DNA of 64,000 nt. Source: Escherichia coli. GTDB taxonomy: Bacteria > Pseudomonadota > Gammaproteobacteria > Enterobacterales > Enterobacteriaceae. Location: the NCBI RefSeq assembly GCF_003790525.1, contig NZ_CP033635.1; one strand, given 5' to 3'. Under the pieces are notes generated by a model. The model was not told the origin of the DNA. It saw only the letters and a program-made list of their open reading frames with translations, and made no database searches. Below, piece by piece: positions 12,288 to 14,728 of this stretch (positions are counted from its first letter, which is position 1; each line of letters begins with the position of its first letter). Both the position numbers and the translations under genes were made by a program.

Positions 12288-13193
12288 TTACATCTCCTGC
12301 GGTACGACCGATTTCGCCAGCAACCATTCACGAAATTGCTGCAAGTGCGGTGAGTCAGACTTCTCTTCCTGCCACGTCATAATAAAACGATTACCGGTAC
12401 GAATAGGCACATCACAGGGAATCACCATATCGCCACTATCCAAATCATGTTGAATAGCGAACCGTGGTAACAGCGCCACGCCGAGATTAGAGCGCACGGC
12501 GGCAATCAGCATTGAAAGCAAATCGAAACGTGGTCCGTTATTGACCAGCGGACTGCTAACGCCAGATAAAGCAAACCACTCTTCCCAGCCAGTAATACGG
12601 GTGCTTTGATGCAGAAGTGGTAACTCAGTAAGCAGTTCTGCCACTGACAGTTTTTGATCGGACATTGCAAGCAAACTGCCGCTGCATACCGGCAAAATCT
12701 CCTCATCAAAGAGATATTCTACTTCCGCCCAGGGCGCGCAAAAATTTTCGCGCATAATGACAGCATCGTACTCCCGATTAAGAAAATCGCCGTTATTAGC
12801 TAAAGAATGAATATTAACAATAATATCGGGATGTAACTTTGTGAATTCATGTAAATTTGGGATTAACCAGTGGGTACTAAACGTAGGATTCACGGCAAGT
12901 TCAATAACCTGAACCGTAGGCTGCCAGGTCATAATGGTATTGGTATCGCGTTCCAGCTTATTTAATGTTTCTTTTACTATCCCCAGGTAATACTTCCCTG
13001 CATCATTAAGAAAAATGCGTTTTTTAGAGTGTGAAAATAACGGAGTATGTAAAAATTCCTCCAGCGCACTTACTTGTCTGAATACTGCACTTTGGGTTAA
13101 CGCTAACTCCTCTGCCGCTCTGGTATAACTTTCATGACGTGCGACGACCTCAAAAGTCACCAGCAGTTCCGTTTTAGGTATTTTTCCTCGCAT
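12288..13193 (-). CDS. LysR-family transcriptional regulator
   Basis: 301-aa ORF with an N-terminal helix-turn-helix (TRAAEELALTQSAVFRQVSALEE) and a LysR substrate-binding domain. Convergent with the upstream operon. Confidence 0.85.
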   Translation of the reverse strand: MRGKIPKTELLVTFEVVARHESYTRAAEELALTQSAVFRQVSALEEFLHTPLFSHSKKRIFLNDAGKYYLGIVKETLNKLERDTNTIMTWQPTVQVIELAVNPTFSTHWLIPNLHEFTKLHPDIIVNIHSLANNGDFLNREYDAVIMRENFCAPWAEVEYLFDEEILPVCSGSLLAMSDQKLSVAELLTELPLLHQSTRITGWEEWFALSGVSSPLVNNGPRFDLLSMLIAAVRSNLGVALLPRFAIQHDLDSGDMVIPCDVPIRTGNRFIMTWQEEKSDSPHLQQFREWLLAKSVVPQEM

Positions 13194-13770
13194 AATGCCT
13201 TCCCTTAAAAATAGTTGAAACTATCAAAAAACCATTACTTATTGCTAAGTAATGGCAACCAAAGCAGCAATCAATATTTTATAAAAATCATGTTCGATAT
13301 TTATAACCTGGTAAGCCTGGCGTGACAATTGTCTTAATCAGATAATAATAATCCGAAAAGCACAGCACCTTTCGAATTATCAGGAATTACATTAAGTGAA
13401 AATTATTAAATTGATATCATTTATCATATCTGTGGATATTATGATAAACAATCAACATAGATTTTATTTTTGATTTATAGCATATCCCTCTAAGAATTTT
13501 TGCGATGCTTCAATATCCGGGGTAAAGACCCGATCCTGACTGACAAATGGCACGACTTGACGATAAGCGGTGAACATCGCTTTTGTTGATTTACTTAACG
13601 CTACGGTCAAACGCTGGGAAGCCAGTGCATCAGGTAACGATTCGAAATTCGCCGTCGTTCTTATTCGTGGCTTGCGGTCGGTCGCGGCAATCCACAGTGG
13701 CTGTGGTCATGCAGTCAAGCCTGCAGTCAGATTCCGACCGTGGTTAACGTTTAAGGCATAAAAAAGGCCA

Positions 13771-13858
13771 TCATATGATGGCCAACCATGTCGAAACCGA
13801 CAGCCCTTCGCCATTCCTGTAGAGGGAAGCGGCGAGGGCTATTTCTTATTACAGATAT
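13771..13858 (-). ncRNA. sdhX: sucD 3'-UTR small RNA (SdhX/RybD-type) ending in an intrinsic terminator
   Basis: Region immediately after the sucD stop on the minus strand ends in the perfect palindrome GGCCATCATATGATGGCC followed by a T-run. Identity as SdhX rests on position and recollection; 5' end approximate. Confidence 0.45.
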
Positions 13859-14728
13859 TTATTTCAGAACAGTTTTCAGTGCTTCACCGATATCCGCCAG
13901 GCTGCGAACGGTTTTCACGCCTGCGGCTTCCAGAGCAGCAAATTTCTCATCCGCAGTCCCTTTCCCACCGGCAATGATGGCACCCGCGTGGCCCATACGT
14001 TTGCCTTTCGGCGCAGTCACACCAGCGATGTAACCCACAACAGGCTTGGTAACGTGCTCTTTGATGTACGCAGCCGCTTCTTCTTCAGCGCTACCGCCGA
14101 TCTCACCGATCATCACGATCGCTTCGGTCTGCGGATCTTTTTCGAACATTTCGAGGATGTCGATAAAGTTAGAGCCAGGGATCGGGTCGCCGCCGATACC
14201 AACACAGGTCGACTGACCGAAACCGTAATCCGTGGTCTGTTTAACCGCTTCATAGGTCAGTGTACCGGAACGGGAAACGATACCCACTTTACCCGGTTTG
14301 TGAATGTGACCAGGCTGGATACCGATTTTGCATTCACCCGGAGTGATAACGCCCGGGCAGTTCGGGCCGATCATGCGAACGCCCGCTTCATCCAGTTTCA
14401 CCTTCACGGTCAGCATATCCAGCGTCGGGATGCCTTCAGTGATGGTGATAATCAGTTTGATGCCTGCATCAATAGCTTCCAGAATGGAGTCTTTGCAGAA
14501 CGGTGCTGGTACGTAGATAACAGAAGCGGTAGCGCCAGTAGCAGCAACAGCTTCACGCACGGTGTTGAACACCGGCAGGCCGAGGTGGGTGGTGCCGCCT
14601 TTACCTGGGGTTACGCCGCCAACCATTTTAGTGCCGTATGCAATAGCCTGTTCTGAGTGGAAAGTCCCCTGGCTACCGGTAAAGCCCTGGCAGATAACCT
14701 TGGTGTTTTTATCAATTAAAATGGACAT
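13859..14728 (-). CDS. sucD: succinyl-CoA synthetase alpha subunit
   Basis: 289-aa translation recognised as SucD. Confidence 0.97.

Follow-up and report, generated by a model that had tools for sequence, protein, structure and literature searches.

Introduction

Pseudogene relics in bacteria are reportedly eroded by a deletional bias, a general concept treated by Mira, Ochman and Moran in 2001 and in later work. Such relics share several traits with the locus described here, which lies between a LysR gene and sucD in Escherichia coli: truncated pieces at the place of the intact orthologue, disrupted frames, and stepwise small deletions at short repeats. Nothing essential separates the two. 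Two details are unusual at this locus: another Escherichia lineage, E1V33, still shows an intermediate stage, and recombination has apparently transferred the scar allele between lineages. As a type the scar is ordinary, and its details could be resolved well.

One of the two eroded genes belongs, where it is intact, to the HAL/PAL/TAL family of lyases, in which enzymes acting independently of the MIO group have been described. Periplasmic MIO-less relatives from Shewanella remove trimethylamine from ergothioneine, histidine betaine or N-pi-methyl histidine betaine (10.1101/2025.08.13.670108, 10.64898/2026.04.22.720169). Lys384 of the ergothionase of Treponema denticola binds the thiolate. In the Shewanella relatives the choice of substrate has been linked to that residue (10.1101/2025.08.13.670108, 10.64898/2026.04.22.720169). 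According to a 2026 review, E. coli has no annotated ergothionase homologue, and a report of the activity from 1962 is questionable for that reason (PMC13405746). In a preprint on gut anaerobes, the Hut pathway is linked to the methylaspartate pathway via glutamate. On the sucD side, the seed of the small RNA SdhX and the sucD terminator have been described (PMC6393394). Our literature searches found no description of the LysR-sucD locus.

Materials and Methods

The window, that is, the whole 64,000-nt stretch of DNA that was analysed, corresponds to E. coli SMS-3-5 (NC_010498.1) at 100% identity. Unless a locus record (L001 and so on) is named, positions are those of the window. The genome survey covered 5,426 complete E. 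coli genomes. Haplotypes were distinguished at 100 diagnostic positions that separate EC200461 (intact type) from FDAARGOS_1290 (typical scar type).

Results and Discussion

The boundary with the core genome

A preliminary description of the window had reported no intact gene in 13194-13770, and this was confirmed for SMS-3-5, in which RefSeq annotates no feature between the LysR gene and sucD. The right-hand end of a 711-bp query spanning it was matched in 5,425 of the 5,426 complete genomes, and most of the query in only 835. In K-12-type genomes the homology is limited to 13752 rightwards; the equivalent point in K-12 is the stop codon of mngR, 103 bp from sucD. In these genomes mngR, which encodes a GntR-family repressor (MngR, also FarR) and is convergent to sucD, takes up the place beside the SdhX terminator.

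The core side is formed by the sucD 3' UTR (Table 1). The minus strand of 13755-13795 contains the seed UUCGACAUGGU directly before a Rho-independent terminator hairpin, in agreement with the published description of SdhX. No Rfam model matched SdhX when 13100-13950 was scanned, and the sole match in that interval, RsaOG, was sub-threshold (E 0.42, 23 bits vs a gathering score of 50) and was treated as chance.

The preliminary description had placed an island junction here, with a resident gene broken by the insertion. The LysR-sucD interval is not an integrative genomic-island junction. There is no tRNA gene in the SMS-3-5 locus record (L001 1-18000), no att site was found, the annotation of the locus holds no integrase, and the only repeats within 13150-13900 are short ones of chance size, none of them meaningful as flanking repeats. 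The left end of the accessory segment falls outside the window. Another gene remnant lies further to the right, downstream of gltA: RefSeq annotates a partial type 1 fimbrial protein pseudogene that lacks its N-terminus at about 25568-25963 (L001 28419-28814).

Anatomy of the relics

Decayed coding fragments do lie at the edge of the accessory segment, as had been proposed, and they show significant protein similarity in tblastn searches, to a HAL-family lyase and to RtcB. They derive from these two genes of the accessory segment itself and not from a resident gene broken by an insertion. Four relics, A to D, were delimited (Table 1).

Table 1. Features of the LysR-sucD interval in the E. coli SMS-3-5 window, with the intact lyase gene of other strains. 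Positions refer to the window unless a locus record is given.
Position	Strand	Feature	Remarks
12288-13193	-	LysR gene	left flank of scar
13000-13601		blastn piece (query 13000-14000)	LysR 5' end, intergenic region, last 138 bp of lyase
13194-13463	-	AT-rich (28.5% GC) intergenic region, lyase stop to LysR start	retained from intact arrangement
about 13231-13256	-	palindrome CCATTACTTA/TAAGTAATGG with perfect 10-bp arms, then T-run	38 nt upstream of LysR ATG
13335-13728		scar-type haplotype within intact-type flanks	putative recombination tract, from diagnostic sites
13346-13382	-	16-bp hairpin, then UUAUUAUU (U-rich run)	82-118 nt downstream of lyase stop
13464-13604	-	relic A: lyase codons 511-556 (last 46) + stop	tblastn 40/46 identical, E 5e-24
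TGA 13707-13709 to stop 13464-13466	-	stop-free frame, 80 codons	
13596-13657	-	relic B: lyase codons 378-397 (TANFESLP.ALA.QRLTVAL)	tblastn 18/20 identical, E 1e-7
13597-13657		blastn piece (query 13000-14000)	internal lyase piece
13658-13661	-	TTCT, four bases of lyase codons 313-314	apparent remnant of original large-deletion junction
13661-13717	+	relic C: rtcB codons ~376-394 (YSWLAVG.GNP.WLWSCS)	tblastn 16/23 identical (residues 376-398), E 2e-10
13661-13717		blastn piece (query 13000-14000)	internal rtcB piece
13707-13709	-	TGA closing the minus-strand frame in SMS-3-5	TGG in most scar alleles
13718-13761	+	relic D: rtcB codons 451-465 (last 15, ..PAVRFRPWLTFKA) + TAA 13759-13761	tblastn 13/15 identical, E 7e-7
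13720 onwards		blastn piece (query 13000-14000)	rtcB 3' end and sucD 3' UTR
13762-13858	-	sucD 3' UTR = SdhX sRNA, seed UUCGACAUGGU + terminator hairpin 13766-13783	core, all E. coli
13859-14728	-	sucD	right flank of scar
L007 10856-12526 (CE10); L004 20315-21985	-	intact HAL/PAL/TAL family ammonia-lyase	CE10 protein WP_012602238.1

Relic A, found with the intact lyase protein of EC200461 as the tblastn query, belongs to a stretch of DNA that is collinear with the intact loci (L004-L007) from LysR to 13601. The 84-residue version of the minus-strand frame, as annotated in FDAARGOS_1290, matched positions 453-497 of 505 of the NCBIfam hutH model (E 8e-4), far under the family cut-offs. Relic B is 87% identical over 61 bp in blastn and is joined to relic A in frame, with about 343 bp deleted between them at a microhomology of 5-6 bp (AACGC). 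Relic C (89-91% over 57 bp in blastn) stops just short of the HGAGR segment, which we take to be the site of the catalytic histidine of RtcB. Relic D lies on the same strand in another frame and is collinear with the rtcB 3' end and the sucD 3' UTR in loci L004, L006 and L007. The 5' parts of both genes are gone. The pieces that remain have the position and orientation of the intact genes, which lie between LysR and sucD in all arrangements.

Little of either product could be encoded. From the lyase, 66 codons of the C-terminal region are left, without a full catalytic domain (~500 aa, PF00221), and they score 18 bits against an NCBIfam cut-off of 524. From RtcB about 34 codons are left, and these read WLWSCSQACSQ vs WLWSCSHGAGR in the intact protein. 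Judged from this anatomy, 13464-13761 is almost certainly a non-functional deletion scar of the lyase gene and rtcB, left by the loss of a hut-type cluster of about 9.6 kb.

The intact arrangement in other strains

Between LysR and sucD, EC200461 carries an intact gene for a 556-aa HAL/PAL/TAL-family lyase, followed by hutG, hutI, a HutD-family gene, a permease (annotated as a cytosine permease), hutU and a convergent rtcB. CE10 and CFSAN061771 share this arrangement, and 2015C-4136CT1 has it with mngB, mngA and mngR kept between rtcB and sucD. The CE10 and EC200461 loci agree with SMS-3-5 in their flanks, in the intergenic region and in the order and orientation of the surviving pieces. SMS-3-5 differs from them by the missing ~9.6 kb and by a divergence of about 10-17% at the DNA level in the coding pieces that survive.

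The wider cydA-sucD interval is variable. At least five arrangements occur in E. coli (those of K-12, the SMS/O157 scar, CE10, 2015C-4136CT1 and AR_0006), and they vary in whether they contain the methylaspartate operon, the hut-like cluster, rtcB and mngBAR. In 2015C-4136CT1, the strain with all blocks of the interval, the annotation gives mngA a frameshift (L011 4671-6586). The 3' end of mngB of the 2015C-4136CT1/AR_0006 type is only 75.5% identical to that of K-12 (L005 20897-21043 vs L012 2753-2899); a query including 200 bp of this mngB was matched by only 691 genomes, which points to a very divergent mngB haplotype.

History of the deletions

The ancestral order was the methylaspartate-pathway operon, LysR, the HAL-family lyase, hutG, hutI, hutD, an NCS1-type permease, hutU, rtcB and sucD, with a variant in some strains in which mngBAR stood ahead of sucD. 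A single deletion of about 8.9 kb brought lyase codon 314 and rtcB codon 376 together. It would have been followed by smaller deletions, of ~343 bp and ~186 bp in the lyase and ~175 bp in rtcB, several of them at short direct repeats. SMS-3-5 carries at least four deletions; their order is the one that we infer. Summed on CE10 coordinates the deletions amount to 9,595 bp, and the difference in LysR-to-sucD length between SMS-3-5 and CE10 is 9,600 bp.

In the SMS-type scar the junction between the lyase and rtcB pieces reads CGCCGTCG-TTCT-TATTCGTGG, and the adjoining lyase piece leaves the TTCT unexplained. In Escherichia sp. E1V33 the corresponding junction, ...GGTATACGCCGTCGTTCT|TATTCGTGG, fuses lyase codon 314 to rtcB codon 376; the intact lyase reads GGTATACACCGTCGTTCT at codon 314. 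The TTCT of the SMS type can thus be explained as the remnant of a junction that E1V33 has kept more fully. E1V33 also retains an internal copy of CGCCGTCG 186 bp away, and the SMS type would therefore be an E1V33-like scar minus the 186 bp between two CCGTCG-containing repeats. The two scars share the main junction and differ in their secondary deletions: compared with E1V33, the SMS type has its own internal lyase deletion and has lost 13 more bases of rtcB. The E1V33 scar contains an in-frame stop.

Losses with other boundaries were found as well. The scar of E. whittamii consists of 315 bp of the lyase 3' end, a 134-bp piece of hutU and the rtcB 3' end; since its boundaries are different and a hutU fragment was kept, it represents an independent loss. 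Like SMS-3-5, both E1V33 and E. whittamii have kept the lyase 3' end, the intergenic region and the rtcB 3' end beside sucD. In AR_0006 the same genes are gone with yet other boundaries, and rtcB and mngBAR are retained. Because the scars differ among the SMS type/E1V33, E. whittamii and AR_0006, the cluster must have been lost several times, and the change is a loss and not a gain.

Two of these genomes showed further peculiarities. About 463 bp between LysR and rtcB in AR_0006 (L013 12388-12850) have no counterpart in the intact locus or in the SMS-3-5 scar. In E. whittamii the methylaspartate segment is decaying (L010 6570-9904): a cobO-like gene is called at only 102 of 200 aa, and no dicarboxylate/amino acid symporter lies between the fumarate hydratase and DUF4387 genes.

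The intergenic region

The left half of the interval, 13194-13463, can be aligned over its full length with the region between lyase and LysR in the intact alleles and in E. whittamii. It presumably holds the promoter and operator of LysR; a promoter scan gave two sites vs 2.3 expected from shuffled sequences. Two structures stand out in it. The palindrome upstream of LysR is a candidate for a LysR operator or an attenuator hairpin. Its 8-bp core is kept in eight of eight aligned alleles; scar-type alleles depart from it at the two loop-adjacent bases and at the outer ends of the stem, and the predicted fold weakens from -13.3 to -6.2 kcal/mol. The second structure, the hairpin at 13346-13382, folds with -16.2 kcal/mol (z -3.7) in SMS-3-5 vs -21.6 kcal/mol (z -6.5) in CE10. 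The predicted folds suggest that this hairpin probably terminated transcription of the lost operon and that it has lost strength in the scar allele.

These structures raise the question of whether the scar has been kept for a function, with the lyase 3' end and the old terminator insulating the LysR promoter from read-through of the sdh-suc operon, which is highly expressed, and the palindrome serving as the LysR operator. This is consistent with the good fold of the hairpin (z -3.7) and its presence in all alleles, with the conservation of the palindrome core in all eight aligned alleles, and with the retention of the lyase 3' end and the intergenic region in three independent scars (SMS type, E1V33 and E. 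whittamii). However, in AR_0006 the deletion reaches to within 18 bp of the LysR start and the LysR gene is still intact, the hairpin of the scar allele is less stable than that of the intact alleles, and the promoter scan was no better than shuffles. We therefore consider an insulating function unlikely, if clearly better placed than the other alternatives discussed below. It is compatible with the interval being a deletion scar and does not oppose that explanation.

Open frames within the scar

On the minus strand, the frame ending in ...PDIEASQKFLEGYAINQK before its stop exists as described; its stop-free length is 80 codons, a little more than the previous estimate of about 75. It has no plausible start, the sole start-like codon being a TTG that would give 48 aa. 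On the plus strand the 63-codon ORF reported earlier was recovered at 13570-13761, with a GTG start and a TAA 4 nt ahead of the terminator hairpin (13766-13783). Neither ORF is longer than expected by chance: a stop-free run of at least 80 codons occurred in 18% of 5,000 shuffles of the 577 bp (P = 0.18). The fragments are nevertheless real, because their homologues in other strains are intact genes that occupy this very position. This homology also explains both ORFs, since the N-terminal third of the minus frame is antisense to the rtcB pieces and the last 15 codons and stop of the plus ORF are the C-terminus of rtcB.

The minus frame might instead be a genuine small protein gene (84 aa according to PGAP, or 116 aa from an ATG inside SdhX according to other callers). 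The records of FDAARGOS_1290 and several further genomes annotate it, the first of the internal lyase deletions keeps the frame, and 84-116 codons stay open in most scar alleles. Against this, its N-terminal third is antisense to the rtcB relics, the starts available are limited to TTG or to an ATG upstream of a strong terminator, the lengths given by different callers disagree (48 to 116 aa), and most genomes carry no annotation. A Pfam scan of the 101-residue minus frame gave no match. A protein database search with the 84-residue frame returned only nine short gene-caller products of the same or other scars and no full-length protein. The codon at 13707-13709 also speaks against a protein gene. 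It is TGA in SMS-3-5 and TGG in most scar alleles, where gene callers predict "proteins" of 84 or 116 aa; T at 13707 is the state of E1V33 and of intact rtcB, and thus ancestral, so the longer open frame is a derived accident and not a conserved coding feature. A small protein gene is very improbable.

Two further explanations carry practically no weight. The preliminary description had suggested that the fragments are the 3' end of MngR/FarR, truncated by an island insertion; the K-12 mngR stop codon does lie exactly at the start of the homology (~13752), and the plus ORF does end as the 3' end of a gene convergent to sucD, but that gene is rtcB and not mngR: tblastn of K-12 MngR against 13150-13870 gave a best E of 0.36 without a meaningful alignment, a forced DNA alignment showed no similarity to the left of the stop codon, and the lyase and rtcB pieces account fully for both strands. 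No more credible is an ancestral short form into which the hut-like genes and rtcB were inserted, even though the short form is about six times commoner (832 vs ~140 genomes), for an insertion cannot leave pieces from inside the inserted genes in the right order and orientation, with those of rtcB split over two frames, three lineages hold different fragment sets from the same genes, and there is neither a tRNA gene nor an annotated integrase.

Distribution and probable recombination of the scar

The contiguous scar (13464-13750) was found at 97-100% identity in 832 of the 5,426 genomes, among them O157:H7 Sakai, O55:H7 and O145, and is thus fixed in about 15% of sequenced E. coli. In these 832 genomes it is mostly left without annotation and sometimes called a hypothetical protein, and no differing junctions, as separate deletions in each lineage would have produced, were seen among them. 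One scar match was on a plasmid record. The intact form is rarer: at least 80% of the 10.3-kb intact segment was present in 144 genomes, and a 331-bp internal lyase segment that is missing from the scar in 140. Given the difference between these two counts, a few genomes may hold further intermediate or disrupted forms. A junction between rtcB and mngB was detected in 134 of the 5,426 genomes.

Over the 63 relic codons, SMS-3-5 and CE10 differ at 29 bases (~15%), 19 of them at third positions; 17 codon changes are synonymous and 7 non-synonymous. Intact alleles differ among themselves by 0-3 bases over the same stretch. The excess at third positions (19 of 29) points to a divergent functional allele as the progenitor, outside the sampled intact ones. 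Tentatively, since the numbers are small, most of the divergence of the relics may have arisen while the progenitor was still a selected gene. A scan of 100,044 species genomes yielded no closer intact progenitor; it returned only E. coli-like sequences, E1V33, E. whittamii, Sutterellaceae (56-57%) and Serratia (43-44%).

The haplotype around the scar is a mosaic. At the diagnostic sites SMS-3-5 is of the intact type in 13071-13331, of the scar type in 13335-13728 and of the intact type again from 13734. SMS-3-5 and CE10 have identical LysR proteins. A scar-type patch of about 400 bp within intact-type flanks suggests that the scar arrived in SMS-3-5 by homologous recombination. A lineage with CE10-like flanks probably received the scar in this way, so that about 10 kb were replaced by about 400 bp.

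The intact parent lyase

The intact lyase is probably not a histidase, to judge from its sequence matches. Its best match among solved structures is the ergothionase of T. denticola (6s7j; E 1.3e-83, 285 bits), and the match to Pseudomonas histidase is lower (171 bits). On the NCBIfam histidase models it reaches 279-297 bits vs cut-offs of 524-539. It lacks the Ala-Ser-Gly motif that forms MIO, with GSIGAADIML vs GSVGASGDLA in histidase, and it thus combines a HAL-family fold with the absence of Ala-Ser-Gly, a combination expected of MIO-independent trimethylammonia-lyases. It does not qualify as an ergothionase in the strict sense: where ergothionase has a lysine at chain index 383, which we assume to be Lys384 (an offset of one is assumed), the alignment shows an Ile in the E. 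coli lyase.

Homology of the intact lyase begins at residue 25-27, after the N-terminal MKGLIRRVTVTVVLWSVCSIAMA; by eye, this extension of 24-26 aa looks like a signal peptide. A leader-like N-terminal extension is a trait shared with the trimethylammonia-lyases of Shewanella. The genomic settings differ, the E. coli gene lying within a cytoplasmic hutU/hutI/hutG cluster and the Shewanella-type enzymes beside a periplasmic reductase. The adjacency of the hut-type and methylaspartate operons at the E. coli locus would fit the link between the Hut and methylaspartate pathways proposed for gut anaerobes. The closest relatives of the lyase outside Escherichia are those of Sutterella sp. and Turicimonas muris (L015, L017), with 56-57% identity and alignment from residue 1; that they belong to the Sutterellaceae and not to the Enterobacteriaceae hints at a horizontal origin from gut Betaproteobacteria.

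Biological significance

The scar itself matters little, being a dead remnant. It should be annotated as two pseudogene fragments and not as the "hypothetical protein" or "histidine ammonia-lyase" of 48-116 aa that appears in various records. It also provides a worked example of the stepwise erasure of a gene cluster by short-repeat deletions, with an intermediate in a sister lineage and a deletion allele that has apparently moved between lineages by recombination.

More useful than the scar itself is the lead that it gives to the intact parent cluster. With a little less than even confidence, we suggest that most island-bearing E. coli, O157:H7 among them, have lost a module of which the relic is the trace; its first enzyme would be no histidase but a secreted MIO-independent trimethylammonia-lyase for histidine betaine (hercynine) or a relative of it, and the urocanate formed would pass through HutU, HutI and HutG to glutamate and on into the adjacent methylaspartate pathway. 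If this is true, the gene that survives intact in about 2.6% of complete E. coli genomes would be the first candidate for the breakdown of betaine-histidine/ergothioneine in E. coli, and the parent cluster may explain strain-dependent use of histidine-derived betaines and release of trimethylamine by this species.
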